A stretch of DNA of 63,991 bases, filler included, from Babesia bigemina (lineage: Eukaryota), in NCBI RefSeq assembly GCF_000981445.1. It is 4 parts of 4 records of this genome, joined end to end, with 100 filler letters (N's around TTAATTAATTAA, not from the genome) between each part and the next. Parts side by side here need not be neighbours in the genome. Positions count along the whole stretch, not along the records: positions 1 to 24,585 come from NW_012237332.1; 3 more parts are not named here. One strand, given 5' to 3'. The first letter of the stretch is position 1. The number at the start of each line of letters is the position of its first letter. Positions 6,001 to 49,680 of the stretch are shown here, one piece after another. The position numbers and the translations under genes are program-made. The notes under the pieces were generated by a model that was given only the letters and a program-made list of their open reading frames with translations, was not told where the DNA came from and searched no databases.

Positions 6001-6254
6001 CTCAATATTTCACCAAATTATTTGAGGAATGTGACAACTTCATTTGGACCATCAGAGAACCGTTCACCTACCTAGTGCTGGCGCTCTGGTCCGCCTCATT
6101 CCTCTACCTCATCTGCGTAATGGTTGGCAGGCTGGATGTGCTCCACATACGCTCACACCTGAGGATACCGTCATCGCACAGGATAACGGCGCAGTCATTG
6201 TTGGCTGCAGCGCAAGTCGGAAGGCTTGCCAAGATATCCTACCTGCAACCGTAA
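6..6254 (+). CDS. ves: VESA-like variant erythrocyte surface antigen, subfamily-1 body with tail type A (...GRLAKISYLQP); 5' end at the window edge
   Basis: 2082-codon ORF with N-terminal GYDGSGIVYSDLDRLCD motif, long helical middle, Cys-rich distal domain, one C-terminal TM (PFTYLVLALWSASFLYLICVMV) and RLDVLHIRSHL tail. Track start is TTG; first in-frame ATG is at 24. Confidence 0.85.
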   Translation: MQDIDSMLISLGHLAAQLGAFVGESDSVKKAVKNAIKACFDTNPDLKTDLNDVYDSHVTTLSVSVNSADQAGENQKISELKDKVTSQIAVISEQVNTLNNPLNPSPSSPSPSADSAKLQSKLEVLEKVEKLCGFYENSKNASNDPKNLLDNLCDGLQTFLGYDKDSKGYDGSGIVYSDLDRLCDAVMGFLSGVLSNIKEHLGQHKNSLDDAINILNANKHGGKKGFNDAIVKVVEGVGRYNKGVEQSNTSIRNPIRTLLKYVKAEKGTLLDGLNAIIQVPDDAAHDAVEQAETQVRDKLTECQQAADTFNTAFNLKTQTDMNKCITDLNDKIETKVRHSIGNVKHESERLKALAQKERSDLDATIKVTTDTLENLRSGVRKNVCERVTTLVSDLKNIVTLILKELRAMNLKLEWLVKELKQWMEEAKKIIKETLRKQVEEIRREIDEDAGSKNPNHKKSLLAEITKLETALGTKVSELEKWKEAGDAAVRLAKEKCDEIVGKLNGGDTEKDVGTKGGVKDAAEQLKSKAEELRGKALATKQKVAELVREALTAVKRMDDALKQDLWKVKQEIKNAVKALGIKLEGDVKEDLTTLKGAISGPLSIITSGAVEFLEKLRATHRAIQAAVENIYDNVNKVRELQNLNSIEGSLDSKIKLLPAMRTENAFTRLTTYFEHLDQHIMQKVEDSMRRIGSVMLERVALYAGGVNLDYELGKSPIKDGISEALESLAKVSNLKTLPNLADLKSILGNTEWEDLQTVLTGISSVKDKITGKTADKMTKEDVESLLTYFSSMAQAISSHSDKLVKAVMAAIQKKVKEEIGEVAGAINAKVGHIRTGVQKDTENDGNENYGLSHDQPNSRGLQALVTQFEKINQKLEELKNTTIPNTIFKTSGVGDNNYDLKTVMSNFHTTYEKNFKEGDIKTGGGTGTKSVLDEEIGGDGTTTVGAAQKISNLATGKFTNYEQQVKQDSLTSGDPNKLEGELPKAIKAIETTVNGKDCLQNVNNGRGGGDGTFDGQMFETLNQKITTNLNSFTDKVKDLVKDGGSNNDVNAYLEDVSLLLNTGDPVTLKSDIKGSHNGVKGLVTIKEDIHNLQTTNIKDVKDYLKYMCGYVRNHTKDIDAQLNNLADNLIDKQLKDLHDQLHTLQSKTLDKIIKATETFINTDTKVLQERCIDELYEYLDRQVGDVKQQLSTHARRQYVSSIDALLKAFAKKTESELKPLLIDVNSDLNIGLKGFMKKFDEKFVGGIKALGAIDATSFTVQGLRKIHPMSQAADKFNTCLKASLEYLEKQKDLTSDYKIITPAKEALRKVLAKLVQSQHFDHEFCNNLDALTDELDKLAPGKFGQPTTVLSQAFKEGFADLASVLGKAYVNMYDGASDGFLWTNAAKDHKLTDDAVKCAKVCWSVLPILHSGLTHLRDQCSKNYPASQIHLTSGPGVLLTHMGYDVAKGRTSQDGQLRNMETMMGEKIARLLAKNISGNDNEHLNERITKNIGTFNLFNVLECLYTHLNDYYSVRHLVLNPRPRMPCNIYEMLCWMSGLPCNNVFDEMLHEAVSELFVDPEKQVTDGELSAAVISDEPIAAYPHDINYNPLLTALTDICSQSHDILTTILGTGDSYTIYAVDYSTNSLGLRYPSTGEDCLQMLLDILRRLFPVLRFMYAQCGLSAAYRGWYDCQYGKNVKYSNWNCREHSAKQQLDCYPTSPLMSYLRDCLPGLLPHRLTNIGCKSVCANCPKKLPGQPCLTPLGFRSFSGSTRTGKELCNVLAKFFDNSYITSLFSLTPKPPSTLSEHFEFALSLAQCISTPTSNHNNGVTELREAFEENITSNSIALYKVPSKLTDALLKSYCNREIAHSAKHSDAKNTDLSSLARENSCSDLYSQCAPYLCSTSSDAYTYLAKKHADLYLSWAVYLPWTFYSYLKGLLDAFQQIDCGGSGCTKCSCKPGKHGVEYSCKCNALISCRGVMTTFYQYGFTFGNAKTLYGTNRKFCLSFHTQLSNLLKSQYFTKLFEECDNFIWTIREPFTYLVLALWSASFLYLICVMVGRLDVLHIRSHLRIPSSHRITAQSLLAAAQVGRLAKISYLQP

Positions 6255-6396
6255 TTGTAATCACGTCTGTAATTCACAGTAACTCACGTAACTACTCACC
6301 TACTCACCTAACCGACAAACGTAGTCTAATGTTTTGAATTACTCTAGCGGCAACCTGTGAACTAAATAGCACCTAGATTAGGTTACGACTGAACGA

Positions 6397-6995
6397 CCAA
6401 GCAAAGTGCTAACCTAGCACCCAGGCAAAGTGCAAAGCTGGCACCCAGGCAAAGTGCAAAGCTGGCACCCAGGCAAAGTGCTAAGCAAGCAGCCAGGCAA
6501 AGTGCTAAGCAAGCACACAGGCAAAGTGCTAAGGTATCAACCAGGCAAAGTGATAAGCTAGCACCCAGGCAAAGTGATAAGCTAGCACCCAGGCTAAGTG
6601 CTGACCTAGCACGCAGGCAAAGTGCTGACCTAGCACGCAGGCAACGTGCTAACCTAGCACACAGGCAAAGTGTTGACCTAGCAACCAGGAAAGGTGCAAA
6701 GCTAGCACCCAGGCAAAGTGCTAAGCTGGCATCCAGGCAAAGTGCTGACCTAGCAACCAGGCAAACTGCTAAGCTGGCACCCAGGCAAAGTGGTAAGCTA
6801 GCAACCAGGCTTAGTGCTAAGCAAGCACACTGGCAAAGTGCTAACCTAGCACACAGGCAAAGTGCTAACCTAGCACACAGGCAAAGTGTTAACGTAGCAC
6901 CCAGGCAAAGTGCTAACCTAGCACCCAGGCAAAGTGATAAGCTAGCACCCAGGCAACGTGCTAACCTAGCAACCAGGCAAAGTGCTAAGCTAGCA
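6397..6995 (+). repeat. 24-bp tandem repeat (CCAGGCAAAGTGCTAAGCTAGCAC-like), about 25 units
   Basis: Direct 24-nt periodicity; explains the spurious ARLALCLG ORF 6383-7027. Confidence 0.95.
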
Positions 6996-6996
6996 C

Positions 6997-7510
6997 ATGA
7001 ACCGTAATTTGGTAGGTGTTGTGGCACGTTGATTGCCTGGTGCGTTGAGTTGTGCGTTGACTGTGAGTGGCGTCTGCGTTGCCCATTGAGTCAGTGTCAC
7101 GTGCGGCTAGGTGTTTGGTTGCTAACGTAGGCGGCCGTGAGGGCCGCGGCGGGTGACCTAAGTCGTGTGTTGCGAGTCACCGGCGGGGTGGCGTAATCCG
7201 CGTTGGCCTGGTTAAGTAGCGTTTATAGGCGGCAATGTAGCGATCGTTAATATCACATTTAGGCACGTAGCCGACACGCTCCGCCGGCATGGCGCCGATA
7301 CCGCGGCTGGTAGCACGGTGCTGCTGCACTGTGGGAGTTGAGCGCACGGGGTTCGCTGCAATTTTAATGGCGTTGCGAATAGTGAATAATTTAAAGTGAC
7401 AGTTGCTGCCGATCACATGCGTCGCGTCAGGGCAGCTGTGGTATCCCGGGCAGCGTGGGTGTCGGAGGCCTGGGCTGGGGGGATACAGGGGTGAGGGTGC
7501 GTGTTGATGA
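6997..7510 (+). promoter_or_regulatory. Conserved unique ~500-bp spacer, putative promoter region of the Cys-rich TM gene
   Basis: Homologous to 27740-28246 (inverted), in the same position between the 24-bp and ~75-bp arrays. Promoter function is inferred. Confidence 0.35.
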
Positions 7511-8655
7511 GGGGACTGGGAGCGGCAGTGGACGTGTTGCAGTTGGTGAGTGCGTTGCTAGGTTATTGATATGTCTGCAGGTTGAGGGTACTGGGAGCGG
7601 CAGTGGTACGTGTTGCAGTTGGTGAGTGCTGCTTGAGTGATTGATATGCTTGCAGGTTGAGGGGAGTGGAGCGGCAGTGGTAGTGTTGCAGTTGGTGAGT
7701 GCTGCTTAAGTGCTTGATATGTTCGCAGGTTGAGGGGACTGCGAGCGTCAGTGGTAGTGTTGCAGTTGGTGAGTGCTGCTTGAGTGATTGATATGTTTGC
7801 AGGTTGAGGGGACTGGGAGCGGCAGTGGTAGTGTTGCAGTTGGTGAGTGCTGCTTGAGTGATTGATATGTTTGCAGTTTGAGGGGAGTGGGCGCGGCAGT
7901 GTTCGTGTTGCAGTTGGTGAGTGCTGCTTAAGTGATTGATATGTTCGCAGGTTGAGGGGACTGGGAGGGGAGCGGCAGTGGTACGTGTTGCAGTTGGTGA
8001 GTGCGTTGCTGGGTGATTGATATGATTGCAGGTTGAAGGGACTGGAGCGGCAGTGGTAGTGTTGTAGTTGGTGAGTGCGTTGCTAGGTGATTGATATGTT
8101 TGCAGGTTGAGGGGAGTGGGCGCGGCAGTGGTAGCTGTTGCAGTTGGTGAGTGCTTGCTAGGTGATTGATATGTTTGCAGGTTGAGGGGACTGGGAGCGG
8201 CAGTGGTAGTGTTGCAGTTGGTGAGTGCGTTGCTAGGTGATTGATATGTTCGCAGGTTGAGGGGACTGGGAGCGGTAGTGGTACGTGTTGCAGTTGGTGA
8301 GTGCGTTGCTAGGTGATTGATATGTCTGCAGGCTGAGGGGACTGGGCGCGGCAGTGGTACGTGTTGCAGTTGGTGAGTGCTTGCTAGGTGATTGATATGT
8401 TTGCAGGTTGAGGGGACAGGGAGCGGCAGTGGTACGTGTTGCAGTTGGTGAGTGCTTGCGTAAGTGATTGATATGCTTGCAGGTTGAGTGGACTGGGAGG
8501 GGCAGTGTTACGTGTTGCAGTTGGTGAGTGCGTTGCTTAGGTGATTGATACGTTCGCAGGCTGAGGGGAGTGGGAGCGGCAGTGGTACGTGTTGCAGTTG
8601 GTGAGTGCTTGCATAGGTGATTGATATGTTTGCAGGTTGAGCGGAGTGGGAGGGG
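7510..8655 (+). repeat. ~75-bp tandem repeat, about 15 units, each containing a GTGAGT...GCAG mini-intron-like segment
   Basis: Unit gcaggttgaggggactgggagcggcagtggta(c)gtgttgcagttggtgagtgc..gattgatatgttt recurs every 74-78 nt. Confidence 0.92.
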
Positions 8656-8658
8656 AAG

Positions 8659-9117
8659 ATGGGTTATTCGTTTCTGCAGTGTAAGTGTGGCAAACAATGT
8701 ACAGAACATGAGTGTTTTTGCTGTCTCTACTGTTGTAGAGGATGCCAACCACTTTGTTATCAGTGTACCAAATTCATCCAGCCTCGCAGAATGGGATTGC
8801 AGGAATGCCATCCAAAGGGATGTACGGAATGTGACATTTACAGTTGCGTATGTAACTGTTGTCTACGTAAACGTTATGCCTCTTCCAGTTCTTCCTCCTC
8901 TTCTTCCTCCCGTGACGTCTCATCCTCCAGTTCTTCCTCCTCCCATGGTCAGCAGCCATCCGTCATTCAACACCCTTCAACCGGCTCCTCTAACTCATCT
9001 TCCAACCCCATCACTTACATCATCGTCCCCGTCGCTTTCATCGTCATCGTCATCGTCGTCATGGTCTACTTCCGCATCCGGCCCTTCCACAGGGTGCGGT
9101 ATCTACTGCGCAGCTAA
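8659..9117 (+). CDS. Small Cys-rich single-pass membrane protein (152 aa)
   Basis: ATG in GGAAGATGG context; CxCCxxCC...CHPxGC...CxCxCC domain, Ser-rich linker, TM YIIVPVAFIVIVIVVMVYF, basic tail. Paralog at 26580-27119 in the same context. Confidence 0.75.
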   Translation: MGYSFLQCKCGKQCTEHECFCCLYCCRGCQPLCYQCTKFIQPRRMGLQECHPKGCTECDIYSCVCNCCLRKRYASSSSSSSSSSRDVSSSSSSSSHGQQPSVIQHPSTGSSNSSSNPITYIIVPVAFIVIVIVVMVYFRIRPFHRVRYLLRS

Positions 9118-9216
9118 TTACAATAACCTAACTGCTAACTGACATCTAATGTTCTATGCAAAATAATAATTGCATTATCAAATACATGAGCAGTAATGTG
9201 ACCTCCCTACTCCGTC

Positions 9217-9357
9217 ATGGTCGCCATCATCCGCCTCGACCTGCTCCACATCAAATCGCATTTGCACTCACCATCGTCACATCGCATTGCCGCCCAGTCA
9301 CTACTTGCCGCCGCACGTGTTAACAAGCTTAACAGAGTGTTTTACCTGCAACCATAA
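9217..9357 (+). pseudogene. ves: Orphan ves tail-type-B fragment, 46-codon ORF MVAIIRLDLLHIKSHLHSPSSHRIAAQSLLAAARVNKLNRVFYLQP
   Basis: Hand translation matches the cytoplasmic tail of 10949-16168; followed by the standard ves 3' flank; no upstream ves body. Confidence 0.8.
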
Positions 9358-9484
9358 TCGTACTCACGTGTTTATTGTCTACACTCACCTAGCATATCAC
9401 CTACTCACCTAACTGATCAATTGTGCTTTAATCTGTTGTATCACTCATTAATCGTTCTATGTGATTGTGTAGTAGTTAACTAAA

Positions 9485-9788: not shown

Positions 9789-10920
9789 TCCACTCTACAT
9801 CGCCCCTTTATCCACTCTACATCGCTCCCTAACCCACTCCACATCGCCCCTTTATCCACTCTACATCGCTCCCTAACCCACTCTACATCGCTCCCTTATC
9901 CACTCTACATCGCTCCCTTATCCACTCTACATCGCCCCTTTACACACTCCACATCGCCCCTTAACCCACTCTACATCGCTCCTCTATCCACTCTACATCG
10001 CCCCTTACCCACTCTACATCGCTCCTTAATCCACTCTACATCGCTCCCTAACCCACTCTACATCGCCCCTTAATCCACCCTTCATCGCCCCTTAACCCAC
10101 TCTACATCGCCCCTTTATCCACTCCACATCGCTCCTTAACCCACTCTACATCGCTCCTTTATCCACTCTACATCGCTCCTTTATCCACTCTACATCGCTC
10201 CCTTACCCACTCCACATCGCTCCCTAACCCACTCCACATCGCCCCTTTACCCACTCCACATCGCCCCTTAACCCACTCTTCATCGCCCCTTAACCCACTC
10301 TACATCGCCCCTTAATCCACTCCACATCGCTCCTTAACCACTCCACATCGCTCCTTTATCCACTCTACATCGCCCCTTTACCCACTCTACATCGCCCCTT
10401 AAACTCCTCTAATCGCTTCTTTATCCACTCTACATCGCTCCCTCATCCACTCCACATCGCTCCTTTATCCACTCTACATCGCTCCCTAACTCACTCCACA
10501 TCGCTCCCTAACCCACTCTACATCGCTCCCTAACCCACTCTACATCGCTCCTTTATCCACTCTACATCGCTCCCTAACCCACTCTACATCGCTCCTTTAT
10601 CCACTCTACATCGCCCCTTTATCCACTCTACATCACCCCTTAACCCACTCTACATCGCCCCTTTGTCCACTCTACATCGCTTCTTTATCCACTCTACATC
10701 GCCCCTTTATCCACTCTACATCGCCCCTTAACCCACTCCACATCGCTCCCTAACCCACTCTACATCGCCCCTTTACCCACTCTACATCGCTCCCTAACCC
10801 ACTCTACATCGCCCCTTTATCCACTCTACATCGCCCCTTAACCCACTCTACACCGCCCCTTAACCCACTCTACATCGCTCCTTAACCCACTCTACATCGC
10901 CCCTTAACCCACTCTACATC
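9789..10920 (+). repeat. 22-bp C-rich satellite (CCACTCTACATCGCYCCYTWAY) upstream of a ves gene
   Basis: About 50 direct units, ending at the conserved leader CATCCCTYGAATCACCTCGCC. Confidence 0.97.
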
Positions 10921-10948
10921 CCTCGAATCACCTCGCCTTAATACTGCT

Positions 10949-13900: not shown

Positions 13901-16168
13901 ACCCCTGAGGGCCGGAACTGCGCCAAGGTCTGCCTGACGATGGTGGAGATACTGGTTAACGATTTCTATGAGCTAATGAAAGAGTGCCAAAAATCGTGGA
14001 AAAACAAACAAATTAATACGTATGAAAACAACTTATTTGGCAAATGGTTAGAGGAACAAGGCTACGAAGTGAATTACAAGAAAGGCAAGCAGACCGGTGT
14101 ATTGCACGACACGATTGGAATGAAGGGATTGAAAATTTATGATGAGCTTCTCAACATGAACATTGGATCTTCTAAAAGAATAAATTTACAGGCTCCGTGG
14201 GTGATGGAAATTCGTAAGCAAAAAGAAGCCGACAATAAAAATCCTCATCAGATAAACGTCGTCGACATTCTTCAATTCCTTTACGGACTAACCAAAACTT
14301 ATTACGATGTATGCCACCTGCGCCATATTGAGAGACCGAAATCGCCGTCATCAGTCTACCAAATGCTGGTATGGCTGACTGGACTTCCTCACAATCGGAT
14401 GAACTCTACCGTATCAGTTGGCGACATCAGCGAACTGTTCCCCAAATCGGATGATGAGGCAAACGGCGTAGGAGATGGCACAATCCCGGTGGTAGATGAT
14501 GACGAATCGTTACCGGCGTATCCAGCTCCTGTTACCGCTGCGAATCTACGAGAGGCACTTCGAAATGTCTGCACCTATGCGGAAACTGTACTTATTTCCA
14601 TCCTTGGTCATGGCCACGCGAACGGCGTTTACGCCGTTGACTTCAACACAAACCCCGACGGTTTCTCATATCCTACCGCGCCTGGAGCGTGCTTCGATAT
14701 GCTTGTGGACATATCGAAGAGACTATATGACCAACTGTATTTCTTATTTATTCAATGCTCACGTACCTATGAAACTAACAGTTGGCGAGACTGCTGGTAC
14801 GGTCGGCACGTCGGTGGCTCAGACTGGAGGTGCAATGAGAAGCAATGCATCAACCAAATGGGCAACCAAAGTGCTGACCAAAAGGCCAACCAATGCTGTG
14901 GCCAAACGTGTGAGCAACACCCTAAGTGCGGCCTTAAATCTCCGTTACAGTCTTTCTTGGAAGACGGTTTGCCAGGATTTTTGCCGCACCAGTTCAAGAA
15001 CCCGGGTTGCAAGCTGGACTGCAGTACGGCCAATCACCGTGGGTTGCCGTGCAAAACGCCCATGGGTTTTTCAGATATAAGTAATATTGCATCGCATACT
15101 AAGCAAGGAGAATACATTATGAACACCCTCTATAGATTCTGTGGCCAACCGGATAGTCCACTTAATCAGTTGTCTACATATTTGGCGTGCCTATTAAGTG
15201 CTCCTCCAGCAACATTAGGTGACATGTTCGCTTTTTTCTACAATTACCTAGACGGGTGGCACAATCAACAGCTTAAAGAACGTGTGTCACACAGGGAGGA
15301 TGCCTTTGATGGCGCAATCACCAAGGCGTATTTCGGAGTTAAATACGATGATTTTGACCTATCGTTGCTTTTTAATGCTAAGCATTCCGATCACAACAAA
15401 CATCGTGACTTAATAAGTCTCGTTTGCGGGGGTGACAACAAATCAGTAACTAACTGCGGCCGCTATCTGCAACCTATCAACGCTAATACATGGACAGTGT
15501 TTTCTAAGGAGAACGCCGACAAGTATCTGTCGTGGATTATCTACCTCACTGAGTCCTTCTATAAGTTGCTTGAGCAGTTATACAAGGAATGTTGCGCAAA
15601 CTGTACATCTGCTGGATCACGTTGCCACGGTAAAACCTGCGTCGCGGATTGCAAAGTCAAATCCCACTACGCATCTCTGGCATCTGCTGCCAAAAGCAAA
15701 ACTCCTGCCCCCGCACCTACCGAACACCAACACAATGAATTATGCAAACCTATCTCTCACTGCCCGTTCACACGTCCTACCTTGTGTAAGTACGGTTTTG
15801 TTTTTAAAAGCCTATCCAATATGAGCGGCGAGAATGGAGAACTAACGATGCGTACCTGCAAAGACCTATGTAACGCATTGCAGAAAGTTCTGAGTAATAA
15901 AATCAGTGACGGTGCACCACTCGCCAAATTGGTACATGAAGTAATCCCCAAATTCATATGGGCCATTAGGCAAAAATTCTTCTGGACCACCGTCGCCCTC
16001 TGGCTCCTGTCCCTCCTCTACCTCCTCCACATCATGGTCATCCGCCTCGACCTGCTCCACATCAAATCTCACTTACACTCACCATCGTCACATCGCATCG
16101 CCGCTCAATCACTACTCGCCGCCGCACGTGTTAACAAGCTTAACAGGGTGTTTTACCTGCAACCGTAA
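10949..16168 (+). CDS. ves: VESA-like antigen, subfamily-2 body, tail type B (...NKLNRVFYLQP)
   Basis: 1739-aa ATG-started ORF with YSDLDRLCD, HPKCGLKSPLQSFLEDGL, C-terminal TM and RLDLLHIKSHLHSP tail. Confidence 0.88.
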   Translation: MAFLNHTNNLCFVTLPSPSSSAELDKLQSKLDALEKVKKLCEFLTNLNNQQNEPKKLLDNLCTGLQTFLGFNSESKGYNGSGIVYSDLDRLCDAVMGFLSGVLGAVKDDEAVKTYDNYMTKKLKDVLDTLTSSIGTGRNGLAASVRAVKEWLEGYDTQITNKTNAVTNALTTLSNNLNDGYANIVESKKVDSLEKQLESWNSTVSDVAREIEVIEEEKISELDNALKNAVMNKIEPIKKSVAMLANSAKQDEFVQQASKVESELVKQRDIITDTVEDMVQNIRESVQSLETCKDQQIWLVKKTIERADAFLDRSLYTEYIYKILASFNQIECEVKNVYKSLNANKGVLENLVNKAREHFRSIRSGIQHGAGSEGNIEHQWDGFKVHLAKFVNGLYKQELEIDQDDIDVTNGLINEIESGVMNYGGNFAKRFDVAIGNVVRSIVSEKEGAVEKYIEQYVRRNNKYFKADVKAKLEGTGNTQIAAFVASHLSPIIEKQLQLHISQKIKQFEIVTDDSVDTVVGNIQTYLTTYAEAVDPIKVNTIVEMIEEHLEIVASAMKTQGYDNQYMTKIMKTVLTAVHAITLRVKEELNSFNTDSDNINYKFGKNIDESIKSFTQFDKLFKLTQQQVSEKFEDVKGKIGQLDTFLNKSEGKITRKLAHIEGDIIRLEKLQNDKNDIRNRESDVVIDRKGEEADRLMKELKIDLKHKLNEITVAVSNAGYALDTAIQSLLTTLNKSKDLCLQSVTSAFTTLTSEVRALFAEGHKADLAALKTLVDGQKAEIEKIIGEDKANNIKGLLQKIYGGLLYDRAGQNTNNTLEDMMETSKESAAQSREQSKFLSHLSTQFKSYSDAVLDYIRSQVKSSDSASDQSNQVGGLKNALDALLVHLNDTDTPYTINPLNKRIHLFDHKYDELLAILRTSLDTFTSPSPLLAPLKAGLSNFAQQLGLAYVNRYSGQTFKQLTKPVEPSKTAAAPEKPSIPDYDLTPEGRNCAKVCLTMVEILVNDFYELMKECQKSWKNKQINTYENNLFGKWLEEQGYEVNYKKGKQTGVLHDTIGMKGLKIYDELLNMNIGSSKRINLQAPWVMEIRKQKEADNKNPHQINVVDILQFLYGLTKTYYDVCHLRHIERPKSPSSVYQMLVWLTGLPHNRMNSTVSVGDISELFPKSDDEANGVGDGTIPVVDDDESLPAYPAPVTAANLREALRNVCTYAETVLISILGHGHANGVYAVDFNTNPDGFSYPTAPGACFDMLVDISKRLYDQLYFLFIQCSRTYETNSWRDCWYGRHVGGSDWRCNEKQCINQMGNQSADQKANQCCGQTCEQHPKCGLKSPLQSFLEDGLPGFLPHQFKNPGCKLDCSTANHRGLPCKTPMGFSDISNIASHTKQGEYIMNTLYRFCGQPDSPLNQLSTYLACLLSAPPATLGDMFAFFYNYLDGWHNQQLKERVSHREDAFDGAITKAYFGVKYDDFDLSLLFNAKHSDHNKHRDLISLVCGGDNKSVTNCGRYLQPINANTWTVFSKENADKYLSWIIYLTESFYKLLEQLYKECCANCTSAGSRCHGKTCVADCKVKSHYASLASAAKSKTPAPAPTEHQHNELCKPISHCPFTRPTLCKYGFVFKSLSNMSGENGELTMRTCKDLCNALQKVLSNKISDGAPLAKLVHEVIPKFIWAIRQKFFWTTVALWLLSLLYLLHIMVIRLDLLHIKSHLHSPSSHRIAAQSLLAAARVNKLNRVFYLQP

Positions 16169-16293
16169 TCGCACTCATGTGTTTACTATCTACACTCACC
16201 TAGCATCACCTACTCACCTAACTTATGAATTGCGCTTTAATCTGTTGCATCACTCATTAATCGTTGTACGTGATTGTGTAGTAGTTTACTAAA

Positions 16294-16599: not shown

Positions 16600-17950
16600 T
16601 CCACTCTACATCGCCCCTTAACCACTCCACATCGCTGCCTAATCCACTCTGCATCGCCCCTTATCCACTCTACATCGCTCCTTATCCACTCCACATCGCC
16701 CCTTTACCCACTCTACATCGCCCCTTAACCCACTCTACATCGCTCCCTTACCCACTCTACATCGCTCCCTAACCCACTCTACATCGCCCCTTTATCCACC
16801 CTACATCGCTCCCTAACCCACTCTACATCGCTCCCTAACCCACTCTACATCGCCCCTTTATCCACTCTTCATCGCTCCCTAACCCACTCTACATCGCTCC
16901 CTAATCCACTCTTCATCGCTCCCTAACCCACTCTACATCGCTCCCTAATCCACTCTACATCGCCCCTTAACCCACTCTACATCGCTCCCTTATCCACTCT
17001 ACATCGCCCCCTAATCCACTCTACATCGCTCCTTAACCCACTCTACATCGCTCCCTAACCCACTCTACATCGCCCCTTAACCCACTCTACATCGCTCCCT
17101 AACCCACTCTACATCGCTCCCTAACCCACTCTACATCGCTCCCTAACCCACTCTACATCGCCCCTTAACCCACTCTACATCGCTCCCTAACCCACTCAAC
17201 ATCGCCCCTTTACCCACTCTACATCGTTCCCTAACCCACTCTACATCGCCCCTTAACCCACTCTACATCGCCCCTTCATCCACTCTACATCGCTCCCTAA
17301 CCCACCTTACATCGCCCCTTTATCCACTCCACATCGCCCCTTTATCCACTCCACATCGCCCCTTAACCCACTCTACATCGCCCCTTTATCCACTCTACAT
17401 CGCCCCTTTATCCACTCTACATCGCTCCTTTATCCACTCTACATCGCTCCCTAACCCACTCTACATCGCTCCTCTATCCACTCTACATCGCTCCCTGATC
17501 CACTCTACATCGCCCCTTTATCCACTCTACATCGCTCCCTAACCCACTCTACATCGCCCCTTAATCCACTCTACATCGCTCCCTAACCCACTCTACATCG
17601 CCCCTTAACCCACTCTACATCGCCCCTTTACCCACTCCACATCGCCCCTTAACCCACCCTTCATCGCTCCTTTACCCACTCTACATCGCTCCCTAACCCA
17701 CTCTACATCGCTCCCTAACCCACTCTACATCGCTCCTTTATCCACTCTACATCGCTCCTTTATCCACTCTACATCGCTCCTTATCCACTCTACATCGCTC
17801 CCTAACCCACTCCACATCGCTCCTTAACCCACTCTACATCGCCCCTTAACCCACTCTACATCGCCCCTTAACCCACTCTACATCGCCCCTTTATCCACTC
17901 TACATCGCCCCTTTATCCACTCTACATCGCTCCCTAACCCACTCTACATC
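16600..17950 (+). repeat. 22-bp satellite
   Basis: About 60 direct units. Confidence 0.97.
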
Positions 17951-18838
17951 CCTTGAATCACCTCGCCTTAATACCGCTATGACCTTTATAAACCTTTATA
18001 ATAACTTGTGCTTTGTCACCCTTCACTTCCCTCTTCCACCTCTTGCCACTGCCATGTCCCATCATGTTCACCCTAACTCCAAATCTCTCGAATTACTTCA
18101 TTATATTAACGCTATGACCTCCATTAATCATTATAATAACTTGTTGATACTGACCATTCTCTCACTGACGATGCTACTAGAAGAGCCTTGCAGGACATTG
18201 ACTCCAAGCTTGTTAGCCTTGGTCACCTGGCTGGACAGCTTGGAGGATTTGTTGGTGAAAGTGAGAGTGTTAAGAAAGCCGTTATATATGCTATTATCGC
18301 CCAAATTAACAGTAATGAAGAGCTTAAAAAGCTTTACTCTTCTCATGTTACTATCCTTTCTGAGTCTGTCAAGCCTGCTGGCAAGGCTGATGACAACCTA
18401 AAAATTAGTGAGCTTAAAGATAAAGTTACCACTGAAATTACGCTTACTGAAGAGGCAATTAAGAATCTTAAGCCTACTGAAAATAACTCTCTTCCTTCCC
18501 CCTCTCCCTCTGCTGAGCTAGCCAAATTGCACTCCAAGTTGGAGGCTTTGAGGAAGGTGGAGAAGCTTTGTGGATTTTATGAGAATCTTAATACTAAACA
18601 AAATGATCCTAAAAAGCTCTTAGATAATTTATGTTCCGGCCTCGAAAAATTCCTCGGCTTCAACTCTGACTCCAAAGGCTACGACGGCAGTGGGATTGTG
18701 TACTCTGACCTGGATAGGCTGTGTGACGCAGTGATGGGATTTTTTGAGTGGTGTGCTTGAGGATGTCAGCGAGAAACAGCCTTACAGTGTGGGTAAAACA
18801 ATACTAATAGAGATTGTTACTGGAGCTTAAAAATAATT
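17951..18838 (+). pseudogene. ves: Truncated, frameshifted duplicate of the leader and 5' end of the ves gene at 43415
   Basis: Essentially identical to 43178-44063, with an extra T at ~18741 and an extra G at ~18822, then an abrupt switch to satellite. May be an assembly artefact. Confidence 0.65.
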
Positions 18839-18844
18839 CGCTCC

Positions 18845-20406
18845 GTAATCCACTCAACATCGCTCCTTAGCGCACTGTACATCGCTCCCTAACCCACTCC
18901 ACATCGCTCCCTAACCCACTCCACATCGCTCCTTTACCCACTCCACATCGCCCCTTAATCCACCCTACATCGCCCCTCTATCCACTCTACATCGCCCCTT
19001 TACCCACTCTACATCGCCCCTTTACCCACTCTACATCGCCCCTTTACCCACTCTACATCGCCCCTTTACCCACTCTACATCGCTCCCTAACCCACTCTAC
19101 ATCGCCCCTTTACCCACTCTACATCGCCCCTTAACCCACCTTACATCGCCCCTCTACCCACTCTACATCGCTCCCTAACCCACTCTACATCGCCCCTTAA
19201 CCCACTCTACATCGCCCCTTTATCCACTCCACATCGCCCCTTAATCCACTCTACATCGCTCCCTTATCCACCCTACATCGCCCCTTAACCCACTCCACAT
19301 CGCCCCTTTATCCACTCCACATCGCTCCCTTAACCCACTCCACATCGCTCCCTAACCCACTCTACATCGCCCCCTAACCCACTCTACATCGCCCCTTAAC
19401 CCACTCCACATCGCTCCTTTATCCACTCTACATCGCCCCTTATCCACTCTACATCGCCCCTCTATCCACTCTACATCGCCCCTTTGTCCACTCTACATCC
19501 CTCCTTTATCCACTCTACATCGCTCCTTATCCACTCTACATCGCTCCCTAACCCACTCTACATCGCCCCCTAACCCACTCCACATCGCCCCCTAACCCAC
19601 TCTACATCGCCCCTTTACACACTCCACATCGCCCCTTAACCCACTCTACATCGCTCCTCTATCCACTCTACATCGCCCCTTACCCACTCTACATCGCTCC
19701 TTAATCCACTCTACATCGCTCCCTAACCCACTCTACATCGCCCCTTAATCCACCCTTCATCGCCCCTTAACCCACTCTACATCGCCCCTTTATCCACTCC
19801 ACATCGCTCCTTAACCCACTCTACATCGCTCCTTTATCCACTCTACATCGCTCCTTTATCCACTCTACATCGCTCCCTTACCCACTCCACATCGCTCCCT
19901 AACCCACTCCACATCGCCCCTTTACCCACTCCACATCGCCCCTTAACCCACTCTTCATCGCCCCTTAACCCACTCTACATCGCCCCTTAATCCACTCCAC
20001 ATCGCTCCTTAACCACTCCACATCGCTCCTTTATCCACTCTACATCGCCCCTTTACCCACTCTACATCGCCCCTTAAACTCCTCTAATCGCTTCTTTATC
20101 CACTCTACATCGCTCCCTCATCCACTCCACATCGCTCCTTTATCCACTCTACATCGCTCCCTAAATCACTCCACATCGCTCCCTAAACCACTCTACATCG
20201 CTCCCTAAACCACTCTACATCGCTCCTTTATCCACTCTACATCGCTCCCTAAACCACTCTACATCGCTCCTTTATCCACTCTACATCGCCCCTTTATCCA
20301 CTCTACATCACCCCTTAACCCACTCTACATCGCCCCTTTGTCCACTCTACATCGCTTCTTTATCCACTCTACATCGCCCCTTTATCCACTCTACATCGCC
20401 CCTTAA
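18845..20406 (+). repeat. 22-bp satellite ending at the retrotransposon 5' junction
   Basis: Direct units; the last ~810 bp are colinear with 9922-10731. Confidence 0.96.
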
Positions 20407-23400
20407 GGAGTTGGAATCTTCTGTGATTTTGGGGGAAACTTTGAGAAACGTGTTTTCTCGGGTTTATCACAGAAAGGAAATTTTTCCGATGTCACTGGGG
20501 GGTGTATTGAAGGCCAAAAGTGCGGAATTAAAGCGGCAACATCGCGAGGCGAAAGGCGGCCACACAGGCGCGCTGGATAGACGAACAAGGTACCAATGGA
20601 GAGCTCACAAGAAGTGCAGCTGAGCAGTCAAATCGATGAGGACGGAGACCTCATGGTTATTGACGTGGACGTCCCCGATGGGATGGACATCGATGCTCCG
20701 CTTGCCACCGTGGGGCGCCGAGAGTGTCGGCAACCCGAAAGGCGGCATGAATCCAGAAAACCGGTACAAAGCGGTGTTCAGGGCCCTAAAGGTAAACCCA
20801 CAAATTCGAAGGGGGCCGGCCGTGGCGGCGAAAGCCGGCCAATCCCGCAGGCAAGCCGGAAACGACACCAGCCCGGAACCACTCCGGCTGTGAAGGGCGC
20901 TGGAAACAAAGCACGGAACGGCGGTCCCCAGGGCCAAAAGGGTAACAACCGGAAGGCCAAAAAGACAGGAAACACGGCTCAAACGCCGCCTGTCGTGGTT
21001 TGCAACGCCGGGCCGAGTTCCTCGGAACGCGCACCCGTGTGTGTGCAGACACTGTCTACCCTGCAGCCACCGGCAGGGGAGGTTGTCGGAAACGGTGGCT
21101 GCCGCTCTCCGACCGTGTATTCCATATCGTCGGATGACTTTATGGACGTGGACGAAGAGGAACCTGAGCAAGTCGGGCCTGTGAGAGAATCAAACAACAG
21201 TATAGCACCGGGCACCGCCAGTGAGGTGGCGCTCACTGAGACGGCTGCGTTGCCGAGGGCACCCGAAGGGCACGCCCCGCAGGCTGAACGGGCCGGGAAC
21301 ACGCCACAAATGCCGCCGAACTACGCTAGGCTGAATGCCAAGTTACAGTTCCTGCACTGTGTCATGCGTCAGATCGATGGACCATGGTGTCATTGGGTAC
21401 CGGACGTCTACAAGGCAGTAGTGACGAAGTATCAGAGGATGCCACGAGGAGGATGGAAAGTCCTCGCGGAATATGCCAACGAGCATTTCGAATTCCACAA
21501 GACCCACAAGGAGGTGGAGCAGATGGCAAGACAGGTAGTCGCCAAAGCAGCGCGGAGCCAACCGACGGACGTTGGAGAAATAGCATCGCTGCACGACGTC
21601 GACTCATACAACGCCCTGCAGGAGGATTTCGACCGGATCATGGCACAGAGGTTGAGGGAGCCTGACCTACTACCGAAGAACAAGAAACCAAAGTCCGCCG
21701 CACAGTACAGGCCGATCACTTGCATGTCCAACCTATACAAGCTAACTACCCGTTGTGCCACGGAGACGCTTAAGCGAGAAGTCGATGGCAGGGGACTACG
21801 GTCCGAGAACCAGATGGGCACGAGGAGCAACGTACAGGGTGCAAAGGAGCACGCGTTAGCGAACATCGCGCTCAACGAGAAGCACAAGGGGAAGTTACTT
21901 GCAACGTGGGTCGACGTCATGAAGGCGTACGACTCAATCGACCACGCGTACCTGGCAAGGGTTATCGACAACCTTAACCTACCAGGGTGGTTATCAAACT
22001 TCATCAAGCAGACGATCAAGAGGTGGAATATAGAGATACGGTGGAACAAGAACACAATCATGCACAAGAAAGTGGAGAGGGGCATTCTCCAAGGCGACAG
22101 CCTATCGCCCCTTCTCTTCGTGCTGTGCTTGGACCCGCTGAGCAGGCACCTGACTCGCATCTTCCCCAAGGTGGAGTTAAGCGTGACCGGCGGCAGGATA
22201 TTCGCCACAAACCACTTTCTCTATATTGACGACCTCAAGTTCTTCGCCCACGAGGAAAGTACGATGAGAGGAATGGGCCGAGAAGTGGAGAAGTTCTTCA
22301 ACGACATAGGACTCAGGATCAACCGCGACAAGTCGGCAACCAACACGGAGGCGTGCGCCAGCATCGCCAAGCAGATGGAAGGCCCGGAAACGTACAAGTA
22401 CTTGGGAGTCACAGAGACTTCAAACTCACTGACAAGCGACGGAATGTTCGACATAATACTACAGGAGATATGCAGGAGAACGGAGCTACTGGCTGCGTCA
22501 AAGCTGTCGGGGAAAAACCTCTCGATGGCCATCAACCAGTACGCCCTCAGCGTCATCAACTACTACATCGGCGTGATCCCTATGGACATCACGCATTTCG
22601 ACAAGATCGACCTGGCAGTACGGAGAATAATTAACGCGAAGCACGGACACAAGAAGTGGGCGAACACACAGAGGCTCTACCTCCCCCGGAAAGAGATGGG
22701 GAGAGGGCTCCACAGCATGGTATTTAGAGCGGAAGCCATGCTGCTACGACTGTGGTTGACGCTTTCAGCAGACGAGGTGACGTCAACCAGGAGAGCTGCG
22801 ATCATGCAGCATTTTCGCGACACATACGCGCACATATCTCACATCAAGATGCACCTGGAAGGAAGATATGGAATGGAATTCGGAATGGAGGACACTACGG
22901 ACAAGAGCCTCAGGGACCTCAGGGTGGCCCAAAACAAATGGCTGTACAACAGAATGCACGTAAAATCAACTCATAAGGTTCTGTATGCCAAGCGTGAGGA
23001 CCCCAAGCTGGACATTGAGGCGTCGTCCTTGTACCTGACGTGTGGAATACTCACTCCGGAAGAAGAAGCGAACGTAGCGGAAGTCCAGGATAGGAATCTG
23101 CAATGGATGTCTTCGTCCAAGAAATGCACAAGATGCAACAACGGCAAGAACGTGGATCACCTCGCGACGAAGTGCCAGAAACTACTACACCTAGAATATA
23201 CGAAGAGGCACAACGAGGTAGCAAAACGGGTCCACTCAGTACTCGGGAGGCAAATAGGACTACCCAAGGAGAAGATAGACGCCCACAAGATCGAGAGTGA
23301 AGTACATGGAAAATACGGATGGATCGCGTACGACAAGACGGTCAAGACTCAGAAGACTAAGGAATACAACAGGCCAGACATCATCCTGGCGGATCGGCGG

Positions 23401-23896
23401 AGGAACACCATAACCATCGTGGAGATAGGAATCACCAATCAAGACAACCTAGTGGATACGGAGAAGTTCAAGAAGCAGAAGTATGAAGACCTTATTGAGG
23501 ACCTCAAGGCGCGACAGTTTAACCAGCACACCAAGATCAGGGTTATCCCCTACGTTATGACGTGGGAGGGAATAGTGACAAAGGAGCACAGCAAGTACAG
23601 ACGGGACCTGGGCATATCGGATCGCATGGAAGCCCACATACAAAGGGTAGTGATCCAAGAAACACATAAAATAGTGATGAGGGATATGAAGCCGAAAGAA
23701 GACTACGATTCCGTAGAAGACCCTCAAGCCCAAACTGGATGGATGCCCGCATGGATGGCACCAGTGACGTCCGGCAATGGACCGGCGTGGATCCCGCAAC
23801 CGGTTTCAGCGTGAGGCGTTAGCCCCGCAAACACGAAAACCGGCCCTAGGCACGTAGCCACATAGCACACTATAAGATGAGATAACTTAATTTAAC
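20407..23896 (+). mobile_element. Non-LTR retrotransposon copy 1 (RLE type, R4/Dong-like), with candidate 5' end and an internal in-frame deletion
   Basis: Starts where the satellite stops (CCCCTTAA|GGAGTTGG). 189-nt 5' UTR, single ORF, 82-nt 3' UTR ending GATAACTTAATTTAAC, shared with the other two copies. Confidence 0.92.
20596..23814 (+). CDS. Retrotransposon polyprotein: reverse transcriptase + CCHC knuckle + restriction-like endonuclease (1072 aa, lacks RT0 region)
   Basis: YRPITC, ENQMG, DVMKAYDSIDH, GILQGDSLSPLLF, YIDD, GLRIN, YKYLG, LYLPRKEMGRGL, CTRC-x7-H-x4-C, RHNEV, RPDII..IVEI, KKQKY. Confidence 0.93.
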   Translation: MESSQEVQLSSQIDEDGDLMVIDVDVPDGMDIDAPLATVGRRECRQPERRHESRKPVQSGVQGPKGKPTNSKGAGRGGESRPIPQASRKRHQPGTTPAVKGAGNKARNGGPQGQKGNNRKAKKTGNTAQTPPVVVCNAGPSSSERAPVCVQTLSTLQPPAGEVVGNGGCRSPTVYSISSDDFMDVDEEEPEQVGPVRESNNSIAPGTASEVALTETAALPRAPEGHAPQAERAGNTPQMPPNYARLNAKLQFLHCVMRQIDGPWCHWVPDVYKAVVTKYQRMPRGGWKVLAEYANEHFEFHKTHKEVEQMARQVVAKAARSQPTDVGEIASLHDVDSYNALQEDFDRIMAQRLREPDLLPKNKKPKSAAQYRPITCMSNLYKLTTRCATETLKREVDGRGLRSENQMGTRSNVQGAKEHALANIALNEKHKGKLLATWVDVMKAYDSIDHAYLARVIDNLNLPGWLSNFIKQTIKRWNIEIRWNKNTIMHKKVERGILQGDSLSPLLFVLCLDPLSRHLTRIFPKVELSVTGGRIFATNHFLYIDDLKFFAHEESTMRGMGREVEKFFNDIGLRINRDKSATNTEACASIAKQMEGPETYKYLGVTETSNSLTSDGMFDIILQEICRRTELLAASKLSGKNLSMAINQYALSVINYYIGVIPMDITHFDKIDLAVRRIINAKHGHKKWANTQRLYLPRKEMGRGLHSMVFRAEAMLLRLWLTLSADEVTSTRRAAIMQHFRDTYAHISHIKMHLEGRYGMEFGMEDTTDKSLRDLRVAQNKWLYNRMHVKSTHKVLYAKREDPKLDIEASSLYLTCGILTPEEEANVAEVQDRNLQWMSSSKKCTRCNNGKNVDHLATKCQKLLHLEYTKRHNEVAKRVHSVLGRQIGLPKEKIDAHKIESEVHGKYGWIAYDKTVKTQKTKEYNRPDIILADRRRNTITIVEIGITNQDNLVDTEKFKKQKYEDLIEDLKARQFNQHTKIRVIPYVMTWEGIVTKEHSKYRRDLGISDRMEAHIQRVVIQETHKIVMRDMKPKEDYDSVEDPQAQTGWMPAWMAPVTSGNGPAWIPQPVSA

Positions 23897-26236: not shown

Positions 26237-26333
26237 TTGCTATGGTCACCTCACTGCTTATGCGATTGATCATCAACGTAATCATTACTGTGTCTAGAAA
26301 ATTAGATGTCAGTTGGCTGCTAGGTTATTGTAA

Positions 26334-26468
26334 TCAGCTGCGCAGTAGATACCGCACCCTGTGGAACGGCCGGATGCGGAAGTAGACCATGACGCAGACG
26401 ACGACGATGATGAGGGCGACGGGGACGATGATGTAAGGGGCGGGTGTTATGATCATCTCGTTGCCCAT
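26334..26468 (-). CDS. 44-aa TM micro-protein MGNEMIITPAPYIIVPVALIIVVVCVMVYFRIRPFHRVRYLLRS (or a gene remnant)
   Basis: Hand translation, ATG 26468 to TGA 26334; near-identical to the TM and tail of 8659-9117; too short for the ORF track. Confidence 0.5.
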   Translation of the reverse strand: MGNEMIITPAPYIIVPVALIIVVVCVMVYFRIRPFHRVRYLLRS

Positions 26469-26579: not shown

Positions 26580-27119
26580 TTAGCTATAAAACGCGATGCA
26601 GAAGGGTATCTTGCGTACGAGGAAATCGCGGATGTTGCGGCCCACCGGAAAGCGGAAGATGCACAGGTCGAGCAGGATGATGGCGACGATGATGGCAACG
26701 ATGACGGCGGCGATGGTGGAGGGGTCAGGGTGGAAAGGTGTGGAGGATTTGACGGGAATGTCTCCATTGGAATTCTCTTGATCAGAAGTATCGCGCAGTA
26801 GACTGGTCTGAGCCTCAGCATGGGAGGAATCAGGGAGAGGCGGTGGAGCGGGGGGCTTGCACTTGTCAGCCTGCTCTGCACATTGTTTTTTACAACATCT
26901 ACATTGACATTTGGTAAAGTCGGGACACTTATTTGTTTGTTTTGCACATCCGTCCGGATGGCAGTCAGTCTTATTTTTGCGCAGGAGGAGATATCCCCAA
27001 CATCCATTGCAATTGTCACTCTTACATTTTTCACAGCACCACGAGCAGCAGACACAACTAAACCGTGGACAACTAATATCACATGTACACGGAGAACCTG
27101 ACGTGGACACCCAAACCAT
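26580..27119 (-). CDS. Small Cys-rich single-pass membrane protein (179 aa)
   Basis: GGAAGATGG start, CVCCSWCC...CHPDGC...CQCRCC, Pro/Ser linker, TM IAAVIVAIIVAIILLDLCIF, tail RFPVGRNIRDFLVRKIPF. Confidence 0.75.
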   Translation of the reverse strand: MVWVSTSGSPCTCDISCPRFSCVCCSWCCEKCKSDNCNGCWGYLLLRKNKTDCHPDGCAKQTNKCPDFTKCQCRCCKKQCAEQADKCKPPAPPPLPDSSHAEAQTSLLRDTSDQENSNGDIPVKSSTPFHPDPSTIAAVIVAIIVAIILLDLCIFRFPVGRNIRDFLVRKIPFCIAFYS

Positions 27120-27124
27120 CTTCC

Positions 27125-27740
27125 GCTACCAATCCCCTCAACCTGCAAACATATCAATCACCTAGCAAAGCACTCACCAACTGCAACACGTGCTACTGCC
27201 GCTCCCAGTCCCCTCAGCCTGCAGACATATCAATCACCTAGCAACTCACTCACCAACTGCCACACGTACCACTGCCGCTCCCAGTCCCCTCAACCTGCAA
27301 ACATATCAATCACCTAGCAAGCACTCACCAACTGCAACACTACCACTGCCGCGCCCAGTCCCCTCAACCTGCACACATGTCAACCACTTAAGCAATCACT
27401 CACCAACTGCAGCACTACCACTGCCGTCCCAGTCCCCTCAACTTGCAAACATGTCAATCACTTAAGTAAGCACTCACCAACTGCAACACTACCACTGCCA
27501 CTCCAGTCCCCTCAGCCTGCGAACATATCAATCACCTAGCAACGCACTCACCAACTGCAACACGTACACTGCCGCTCCCAGTCCCCTCAACCTGCAAACA
27601 TATCAATCACTAAGCTACGCACTCACCAACTGCAACACTACCACTGCCGCTCCCACTCCCCTCACCCTGCAAAGCTATCAATCACACAAGCAGCACTCAC
27701 CAACTGCAACACTACCACTGCCCCTCCCAGTACCCTCATC
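27125..27740 (-). repeat. ~75-bp exon/intron-like tandem repeat, about 8 units
   Basis: Reverse complement of the 7510-8655 unit. Confidence 0.92.
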
Positions 27741-28265
27741 AACACTCACCCTCACCGCTGTATCCCCCCAGCCCAGGCCACCGACACCCACGCTGCCCGG
27801 GATACCACGGCTGCCCTGACGCGACGCATGTGATCAGCACCAACTGTCATTCTAAATTATTCACTATTCACAATGCCATTAAAATTGCAGCTGGCCCCGT
27901 GCGCTCAACTCCCACAGTGCAGCAGCACCGTGCTACGAGCCGCGGTATCGGCGCCATACTGGCGGAGCGTGTCGGCTACGTGCCTAAATGTGATATTAAC
28001 AATCGCTACATCGCTACCTATAAATGCTACTTAACCAGGCCAACGCCGATTGCGCCACCCTGCCGGTGACTCGCAACACACGACTTAGCTCAGCCGCCGC
28101 GGTCCTCACGACCGCCTACGTTAGCAACCAATCACCCAGCCTCACGTGACACTGACTCAATGGGCAACGCGGACGCCTCTCACAGTCAACGCGTTACTCA
28201 ACGCACCAGGCAATCAACGTGCTACAACACCCACCAAATTACGGTTAATCCGCCAGCGTATCAAT

Positions 28266-28660: not shown

Positions 28661-28799
28661 TTTGGTCATAACCTAATCTCAACGCTATCTAGTAGACACG
28701 TTGCCGCTAGAGTAATTCGAGACATTAGACCACGTTTGTTGGTTAGGTGAGTAGGTGAGTAGTTACGTGAGTTGTTGTGAATTACAAATGTGAATACAA

Positions 28800-34439: not shown

Positions 34440-34677
34440 AGCTTTCTTAGTAGCATCGTCAGTTAGAGAATGGTCAGTATCAGCAAGTTATTATAAAGAT
34501 TAATAGAGGTCATAGCGTTAATATAACGAAGTAATTCGAGACATTTGGAGTTAGGGTGAACATGATGGGACATGGCAGTGGCAAGAGGTGGAAGAGGGGA
34601 AGTGTAAGGTGACAAGGCACAAGTTATTATAAAGGTTTATAAAGGTCATAGCGGTATTAAGGCGAGGTGATTCAAGG
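34440..34677 (-). promoter_or_regulatory. Conserved ~240-bp ves leader
   Basis: Homologous to 17951-18187, 43178-43414, 51537-51774 and 62424-62602. Confidence 0.55.
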
Positions 34678-35680
34678 GATGTAGAGTGGGTTAGGGAGCG
34701 ATGTAGAGTGGATAAAGGGGCGATGTAGAGTGGATAAAGGGGCGATGTAGAGTGGGTTAAGGGGCGATGTAGAGTGGGTTAGGGAGCGATGTAGAGTGGA
34801 TAAAGGAGCGATGTAGAGTGGGTAAAGGAGCGACGTAGAGTGGATAAGGGGCGATGTGGAGTGGGTTAGGGAGCGATGTAGAGTGGATAAAGTGGCGATG
34901 TAGAGTGGATTAGGGAGCGATGTAGAGTGGGTTAAGGGGCGATGTAGAGTGGGTTAGGGAGCGATGTAGAGTGGGTAAAAGGGCGATGTGGAGTGGATAA
35001 AGGGGCGATGTGGAGTGGAGTAAGGAGCGATGTAGAGTGGGTTAAGGGGCGATGTGGAGTGGATAAAGGGGCGATGTAGAGTGGGTTAAGGGGCGATGTA
35101 GAGTGGGTTAAGGGGCGATGTGGAGTGGGCTAGGGAGCGATGTAGAGTGGATAAAGGGGCGATGTAGAGTGGGTTAGGGAGCGATGTGGAGTGGGTTAAG
35201 GAGCGATGTAAGGTGGTAAAGGGGCGATGTAGAGTGGGTTAAGGGAGCGATGTAGAGTGGGTTAGGGAGCGATGTAGAGTGGGTTAGGGAGCGATGTGGA
35301 GTGGGTTAGGGAGCGATGTGGAGTGGATAAAGGGGCGATGTAGAGTGGGTTAGGGAGCGATTAGAGAAGGTTAAGGAGCGATGAAGGGTGGGTTAGGGAG
35401 CGATGTAGAGTGGGCTAAGGAGCGATGTAGAGTGGGTAAAAGGGCGATGTGGAGTGGATAAAGGGGCGATGTGGAGTGGAGTAAGGAGCGATGTAGAGTG
35501 GGTTAAGGGGCGATGTGGAGTGGATGAAGGGGCGATGTAGGGTGGATAAAGGGGCGATGTAGAGTGGATAAAGGGGCGATGTAGAGTGGATAAGGGGCGA
35601 TGTAGGGTGGGTTAAGGAGCGATGGAGAGTGGATAAAGGGGCGATGTGGAGTGGGTTAGTGAGCGATGTAGAGTGGATAA
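34678..35680 (-). repeat. 22-bp satellite
   Basis: Direct periodicity. Confidence 0.97.
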
Positions 35681-36680: not shown

Positions 36681-36800
36681 TTAACTTTTTGACAATCACA
36701 CACAACGATTAATAAGTGATACAAAACATTAGACAACAATTAGTTGTATAGGTGAGTAGGTGATGCTAGGTGAGTGTAGATAGTAAACACGTGAGTACGA

Positions 36801-42816: not shown

Positions 42817-43177
42817 CTCCACATCGTTCCTTAACCCACTCTACATCGCCCCTTTACCCACTCTACATCGCCCCTTCATCCACTCTACATCGCTCCCTAA
42901 CCCACCTTACATCGCCCTTTAACCCACTCCACATCGCCCCTTTACCCACCTTACATCGCTCTTTTACCCACTCTACATCGCTCCCTAACCCACTATACAT
43001 CGCTCCCTAACCCACTCTACATCGCCCCTTTACCCACTCTACATCGCCCCTTTACCCACTCTACATCGCCCCTTTATCCACTCTACATCGCCCCTTAACC
43101 CACTCTACATCGCCCCTTTATCCACTCTACATCGCCCCTTTATCCACTCTACATCGCTCCCTAACCCACTCTACATC
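42817..43177 (+). repeat. 22-bp satellite
   Basis: Direct periodicity. Confidence 0.96.
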
Positions 43178-49662: not shown

Positions 49663-49680
49663 CCAGAGTGGTGATTATTA

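Follow-up and report, generated by a model that had tools for sequence, protein, structure and literature searches.

Previous studies on human genes described several minisatellites that reiterate a splice site in variable number, namely those of F7 IVS7 (37 bp), CBS IVS13, IFI6/6-16 intron 2, LMNB2 and PDGF (PMC1557585). In these cases, as the survey presents them, the repeated element is the donor only, and the copies are mostly silent (PMC1557585). Intron-rich variant-antigen clusters are also known in Babesia, where the ves1-beta genes of B. bovis contain 2-11 introns that vary irregularly in both length and position (PMC2034396, PMC4066756), which the passages on gene structure do not describe as a periodic non-coding repeat (PMC2034396). 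In addition, mammalian alternative 5' untranslated regions (UTRs) are rich in upstream AUGs (uAUGs) and upstream open reading frames (uORFs), and the sections treating them indicate that splicing of the leader can decide whether a uAUG is present (PMC3488318).

A tandem array of B. bigemina resembles all of these systems and departs from each of them. Like the human minisatellites, it reiterates a splice site in a variable number of tandem units; however, a donor, a branch-like word and an acceptor are found in each unit rather than a donor alone inside one intron, and the array is part of the 5' leader predicted for a multigene family. It forms a periodic non-coding repeat, unlike the introns of ves1-beta. 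As in the mammalian leaders, splicing is proposed to decide the presence of uAUGs, but the uORF-bearing segment occurs in 8-15 tandem copies and its effect is a predicted one. In none of the known systems compared is a whole exon-intron module repeated.

The window, that is, the whole stretch of DNA analysed (63,991 nucleotides, filler included), contains two such arrays (Table 1). A preliminary description had likened them to a series of micro-exons and mini-introns and had supposed that the copy number varies. Both points were borne out by TRF and by extraction of the single units, which gave 15 units at locus 1 and 8 at locus 2; as these numbers agree with the TRF copy numbers, no unit was dropped. 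The repeat unit is 74-75 bp long and is arranged head to tail in front of small Cys-rich genes. Locus 1 comprises 15 intron-like segments, each 34-36 nt long, and 14 internal exon-like segments, which measure 39-41 nt except for one of 46 nt. Locus 2 comprises eight intron-like segments of 34-35 nt and seven exon-like segments of 39-41 nt. Thus, the introns of about 34-35 nt first reported stand with a range of 34-36 nt, whereas the exon length of about 40-41 nt had to be widened to 39-41 nt with a single exception of 46 nt. The preliminary description held introns this short to be typical of Babesia; the values given for other species are 20-25 bp in B. microti and a mean of 60 bp in B. bovis, and the intron-like length falls between the two. 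In agreement with the same description, the last acceptor is located 23 nt 5' of the ATG at either locus. The array follows the orientation of its gene, the splice-like pattern being present on the gene sense strand only.

Table 1. Features of the two arrays and their surroundings, with positions along the window.
Feature	Position	Strand	Basis or remark
Array 1, 15 exon+intron-like units	7508-8652	+	TRF period 74, 15.2 copies; unit extraction
Array 2, 8 units	27115-27738	-	TRF 8.3 copies; unit extraction
Array 1 intron-like segments, first five	7546-7580, 7622-7655, 7695-7728, 7769-7802, 7843-7876	+	
Array 1 intron-like segments, middle five	7917-7950, 7997-8031, 8071-8105, 8147-8180, 8221-8255	+	
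Array 1 intron-like segments, last five	8297-8331, 8373-8406, 8448-8482, 8524-8559, 8601-8635	+	
Array 2 intron-like segments, first four	27700-27667, 27626-27592, 27551-27517, 27477-27443	-	27477-27443 ends AA, acceptor broken
Array 2 intron-like segments, last four	27403-27369, 27328-27295, 27253-27219, 27177-27143	-	
Unique upstream region of locus 1, predicted promoter and first leader exon	6997-7507	+	Homology to locus 2
Upstream region of locus 2, initiator-like match at 27993-27987	27736-28249	-	
TYAYWWW match, candidate transcription start	7253-7259	+	Only match in the upstream region
Candidate additional donor 5' of the array, GTGCGT	7497-7502	+	GTGAGT at 27749 in locus 2
Last leader segment (predicted), 23 nt, in-frame TGA 7 codons before the ATG	8636-8658	+	
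Cys-rich ORF 1, 152 aa, 18 Cys	8659-9117	+	
Cys-rich ORF 2, 179 aa, 22 Cys	26580-27119	-	

Every unit carries a segment of the form GTGAGT..TTGAY..GCAG, 34-36 nt in length, with a broken AG in one unit of array 2. A donor of the U1-type consensus, G/GTGAGT (the slash marks the putative splice boundary), is found in all 23 units of both arrays, and so is the branch-like word TTGAY, which fits the general branch-point consensus YTRAY; the exact word TGATTGAT recurs in 19 of the 23. The segment terminates in AG in 22 units, the exception being GCAA at 27443 in array 2. The acceptor, which conforms to YAG, reads YGCAG/G in 21 units and CAG in 22, with one CAA. Further donor-like and acceptor-like sites also occur inside the unit, so the 35/40 alternation may not be the sole pattern.

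The copies share one origin, and chance occurrence was assessed for a single unit, which was shuffled 20,000 times by dinucleotides. A GT..AG pair of any kind at 30-40 nt appeared in 100% of the shuffles and the loose GTRAGT..YAG pair in 9.6%, while the full pattern G/GTRAGT..TRAY..YAG/G appeared in 0.15%, a value that overstates the rarity, as the strict pattern was written after the unit had been seen. The full pattern was found five times in 47,498 non-array bases (both strands), and even the loose pattern was absent from all 20 other tandem arrays tested. Across the 23 units, the 14 signal columns hold three variant copies versus 112 in the other 60 columns, so that variation is about nine times lower in the splice-signal columns than in the rest of the unit. 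Twelve of the 14 signal columns are invariant versus 25 of the 60 others (Fisher p 0.003; column permutation p 0.0025), and two of 74 circular shifts, the true position included, gave an equally low value; the units are related and the columns were chosen after the consensus had been seen, which limits the test. No identical pair was present among the 210 pairs of the 21 full units. Their identity ranges from 79 to 97% (mean 89%) and does not differ within versus between arrays; since the units have diverged, the invariance of the signals does not come from recent cloning. Internal units keep the splice-like sites as well as terminal units do, and variation in the intron-like part is concentrated from donor position +8 up to the branch-like word, a distribution that introns would be expected to show. 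Conservation of the signal columns is the strongest evidence in favor of what appears to be selection on splice signals. Against selection specific to splicing, many non-signal columns are invariant too (the 25 of 60 given above), and a DNA-binding word would be conserved as well.

The array is non-coding, as follows from an in-frame TGA within the last 23 nt in both loci and from exon lengths (39-46 nt) that do not keep the frame. The joined exons have 3-9 stops in each frame, and no frame stays open into the ORF. The internal exons, 594 and 303 nt in all, are devoid of ATG, and all but one of the sense-strand ATGs of the arrays lie in the intron part. An ATG is present in 21 of the 23 intron parts, 10 nt before the acceptor end; if left unspliced, these 21 units give a four-codon uORF (M-x-A-G/V/S-stop) whose TGA lies in the next exon.

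Over 514 bp, the upstream region of locus 1 shares 92% identity with that of locus 2 (28249-27736). A single initiator-like TYAYWWW is located about 255 bp 5' of both arrays. This consensus was derived from B. bovis, where it was found at only 801 of 2,023 start regions (PMC4148916), and the match is weak for that reason. A 13-nt word is common to the initiator-like patch (7260-7272 and 27974-27986) and to the 3' untranslated ends of a retroelement described below (23847, 62374 and 41442), with an E value of 0.39 that may reflect chance. Between the initiator-like site and the first donor of the array there are four ATGs conserved in both loci (7289, 7367, 7417 and 7507), from which uORFs of 10-36 codons start on unspliced DNA. 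A leader starting at the initiator-like site would thus not be ATG-free, and because these four ATGs would survive splicing of the array, a uORF gate is weakened. The junction from the possible extra donor before the array is used by four of 47 ab initio gene models. Counted from the initiator-like site, a serially spliced leader would measure 885 and 594 nt, and a leader with a single intron 265 nt in both loci. The median leader of B. bovis is 152 nt (PMC4148916), and the two serially spliced lengths exceed it, which counts against serial splicing.

Public gene models give a view of the array across the family. Peptides of the array exons stand at the start of 26 of 47 annotated models, and were seen by eye in four of eight matches from a later profile search; their presence in many paralogues indicates that the array is a family feature. 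Among the 47 models, 24 junction peptides match the donor-acceptor pair of the preliminary description, and other donors are about as frequent, with 21 junctions inside the exon (GTG/GTA) and seven and three at two further sites. Peptide patterns of a retained intron were found in none of the 47. According to the methods stated for it, the annotation was generated with Augustus, GlimmerHMM and SNAP after training on B. bovis and was then improved manually; the stranded 2 x 150 bp RNA-seq libraries of that study were mapped with the detection of novel junctions disabled (PMC4066756). As the models are ab initio, their junctions show a fit to a Babesia splice model and not splicing. The gene finders were forcing an open frame, and several models have the Cys domain in the wrong frame, with 2-7 Cys. 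Eight RNA runs aligned to 6990-9450 gave 0-4 reads each, all of them partial matches to the Ser-rich stretch of low complexity and none on the array; the organism was not recognisable in any of these runs.

The window also contains long ORFs with a C-terminal transmembrane (TM) segment and a tail, separated by 12-, 20-, 22- and 24-bp minisatellites. Pfam named none of these ORFs; we take them to be ves1-type by size, C-terminal TM and tail. The 12-, 20- and 22-mer arrays are arranged in fixed order between the ves1-type genes (9790-10924, 16601-17950, 34678-35676, 42817-43177, 49678-51536 and others), and the 22-mer array, which has a strong strand skew, lies directly 5' of these genes in gene orientation. 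At the 5' ends of several ves1-type genes (17979-18838, 34235-34650, 43206-43961 and 51566-52051), segments that begin with an ATG are out of frame with what follows downstream, where the frame is conserved, and a clear GT-AG intron was not seen there. The copy at 17979 has a start identical to that of the 43206 copy and then breaks off into a 22-mer array. A retroelement is present in three copies, at 20406-23896 (+), about 59681-62427 (+) and 41393-42716 (-, cut by a gap), which are 98.9-99.9% identical and carry RVT_1 (E 3e-30), a CCHC knuckle, RHN and a PD..E endonuclease-like motif. It is presumably an RLE-type non-LTR element. The first copy begins directly after a 22-mer array, and the 3' flanks differ among copies, which suggests recent movement. 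Expanded genes with reverse-transcriptase motifs were reported in B. caballi and B. ovata, the relevant passages giving no element anatomy (PMC10463595).

Outside the arrays, GTGAGT occurs 46 times in the window, and 20 of these copies fall in seven clusters antisense to the 3' ends of ves1-type genes (6254-6310, 9346-9410, 16168-16220, 28745-28800, 36750-36801, 49252-49345 and 57501-57552). Each cluster has two or three AG/GTGAGT-like words just behind a ves1-type stop codon; in some an AG follows 30-40 nt on, which may point to a spliced antisense RNA or to a DNA or 3'-end motif. The antisense blocks end in TTGCAG/GT, the reverse complement of terminal LQP codons. They are weakly similar to the array unit (p<0.05 in 10 of 21 comparisons, which are not independent), and a profile of the unit found nothing outside the arrays in the window. 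Either the antisense GTGAGT has a role at the DNA level, or it belongs to spliced antisense RNAs, or the unit was derived from an inverted block. As the word is conserved here without being a sense-strand donor, it counts against a splicing reading of the arrays.

Judged from these sequence features, the chance that the array forms a 5' untranslated leader whose units are mostly spliced singly as 34-36 nt introns appears about even. Of modest probability is a minisatellite acting at the DNA level (a promoter, chromatin or recombination element, or a neutral repeat) that is unspliced, or of which the last unit alone is transcribed, with GTGAGT kept as a protein-binding word. Four other minisatellite families fill the same intergenic regions, and their abundance means that repeat growth needs no function; the antisense clusters behind ves1 stop codons, the frequency of the loose intron pattern in shuffles and the short median leader of B. 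bovis point the same way. However, the donor, the branch-like word and the acceptor are maintained jointly, at a fixed spacing of 34-36 nt, on the sense strand only, both arrays end exactly at the acceptor plus 23 nt, and no canonical G-quadruplex motif is present in the array. A G-quadruplex role was itself considered and set aside, since G4Hunter windows at or above 1.2 make up 14-16% of the array versus 25% of the 22-mer array. It is unlikely, in our estimate, that one long or variably skipped leader intron runs from a donor at 7497 or 7546 to the last or a variable acceptor, the internal sites being mostly silent as in the human donor-bearing minisatellites. A leader of 265 nt in both loci would be closer to the norm, in F7, CBS, IFI6 (6-16), LMNB2 and PDGF the first one to three donors are those reported as used (PMC1557585), and shuffling of units by unequal crossing-over could preserve internal sites. 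Those human repeats contain the donor only and belong to mammals with long introns, whereas here an acceptor follows 34-36 nt on. Moreover, short-intron genomes favor the pairing of splice sites across the intron, and the internal sites are as well conserved as the terminal ones, both of which argue against a single long intron.

The public models, 26 of 47 of which begin with array peptides, would imply that the micro-exons are coding and add a variable N terminus, which we consider hardly credible. At these two loci this is already contradicted by the in-frame stop in the last exon, by exon lengths that ignore the frame and by stops in every frame, and the models behind it are ab initio, several with a misframed Cys domain; it was therefore rejected. 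The least probable explanation of all is that assembly multiplied one unit. The window is gapped and repeat-rich, so that exact copy numbers may be off, but identical pairs are absent among the full units, and the array occurs twice in the window and can be followed in 26 models of a reference obtained by capillary sequencing; divergence of the units and recurrence across loci and models led to its rejection. The probability of anything beyond serial splicing, a DNA-level repeat and a long or skipped intron appears very small.

The genes behind the arrays encode short proteins rich in cysteine, with A at -3 and G at +4 of the start codon. ORF 1 has a linker rich in Ser, a single hydrophobic helix close to the C terminus and a type A tail (RIRPFH), and ORF 2 has one predicted TM helix (residues 133-155) and a type B tail (FRFPVG). 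Neither gave a Pfam family above cut-off, the AlphaFold model was too poor for use (pLDDT 54.8, pTM 0.30), and the best ESM Atlas score (0.84) corresponded to small TM proteins of a generic kind and gives no more than a lead. The two ORFs themselves were absent from the protein collection searched. Sequence searches retrieved 47 annotated relatives, all hypothetical proteins of B. bigemina. A profile search covering 1.84 billion representatives yielded 37 matches, all short hypothetical proteins of B. bigemina and eight of them new. By sequence likeness, the family comprises at least 55 annotated proteins and is confined to B. bigemina in these searches. In 13 full-length members, 18 Cys are invariant, and each of these proteins has a variable linker, a TM helix and either of the two tails. 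The family identifiers tried were not found in the B. ovata cluster table, and the array pattern had no match in metagenome contigs, as expected for a eukaryotic parasite. In a published 459-row proteome table, none of 24 family identifiers searched (of 40 known) was listed (PMC4066756); small variable membrane proteins are easily missed, which makes this a weak argument against the spliced-leader reading. No description of the array or the family was found in the literature searched, mostly outside subscription journals. The remaining species-specific genes were described as often surface-protein-like, the passage concerned saying nothing further on them (PMC4066756). Behind ORF 1, a ves1-type C-terminal remnant and 3' flank (9227-9480) are 85-91% like four ves1 ends, and at locus 2 the type B tail is followed by a separate type A tail block (26244-26437); both tails are joined in three of the 47 annotated models. 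The Cys-rich cassette seems to swap tails and, in both loci, to follow a ves1 gene and a 24-mer array.

The family is comparable to ves1a, ves1b and ves2 of B. bigemina and to the smORF genes of B. bovis in being multi-copy, variable and located in ves1 clusters (PMC4066756). Its members resemble VESA1 in that no signal peptide is seen by eye and a C-terminal TM helix precedes a conserved short tail. Unlike VESA1, which is large and has the VESA C-terminal domain, they are much shorter (152 and 179 aa for the two ORFs), have different tails and 18 invariant Cys, and the two ORFs gave no Pfam family above cut-off; the searches run gave no likeness to ves1. The ves2 and smORF proteins are described as secreted, with signal peptides, and the definition given for ves2 also includes homology to the 5' end of ves1b (PMC4066756), while a C-terminal hydrophobic helix is present in both Cys-rich ORFs.

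If the array is serially spliced, transcription may start upstream of it, possibly near 7255, and each donor would pair with the acceptor 34-36 nt downstream, the unit having presumably been multiplied by unequal crossing-over. A retained unit would add a four-codon uORF, so that incomplete splicing would lower translation; longer arrays would give less leak, and the share of clean mRNAs may fall with the number of units. A selected regulatory role of the array is doubtful on present indications, and such an effect on translation may be a by-product. Similarly tentative is the suggestion that an undescribed family of variant surface proteins is controlled by a variable-number exon-intron leader acting as a splicing-counted rheostat on antigen expression. 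Translation would then need the removal of every intron, since each carries the start of a four-codon uORF; array length and single broken sites would set the output of each paralogue, and recombination in the array would retune it.

The array is a real, non-coding and family-wide repeat, and its unit is a well-preserved exon-intron module. Even if it is unspliced, at least 55 small TM proteins rich in Cys are flagged here as a family found in B. bigemina only; their public models are frequently in error at the 5' end, since the predictors took the array for coding micro-exons. If it is spliced, dozens of paralogues would provide a natural series in which nearly identical mini-introns occur in varying number. 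The pairing of consecutive sites by a short-intron spliceosome could then be tested directly, and the array would represent a clear case of intron multiplication by tandem duplication. Splicing of the array would also add a post-transcriptional layer to the control of the variant-gene clusters of Babesia.
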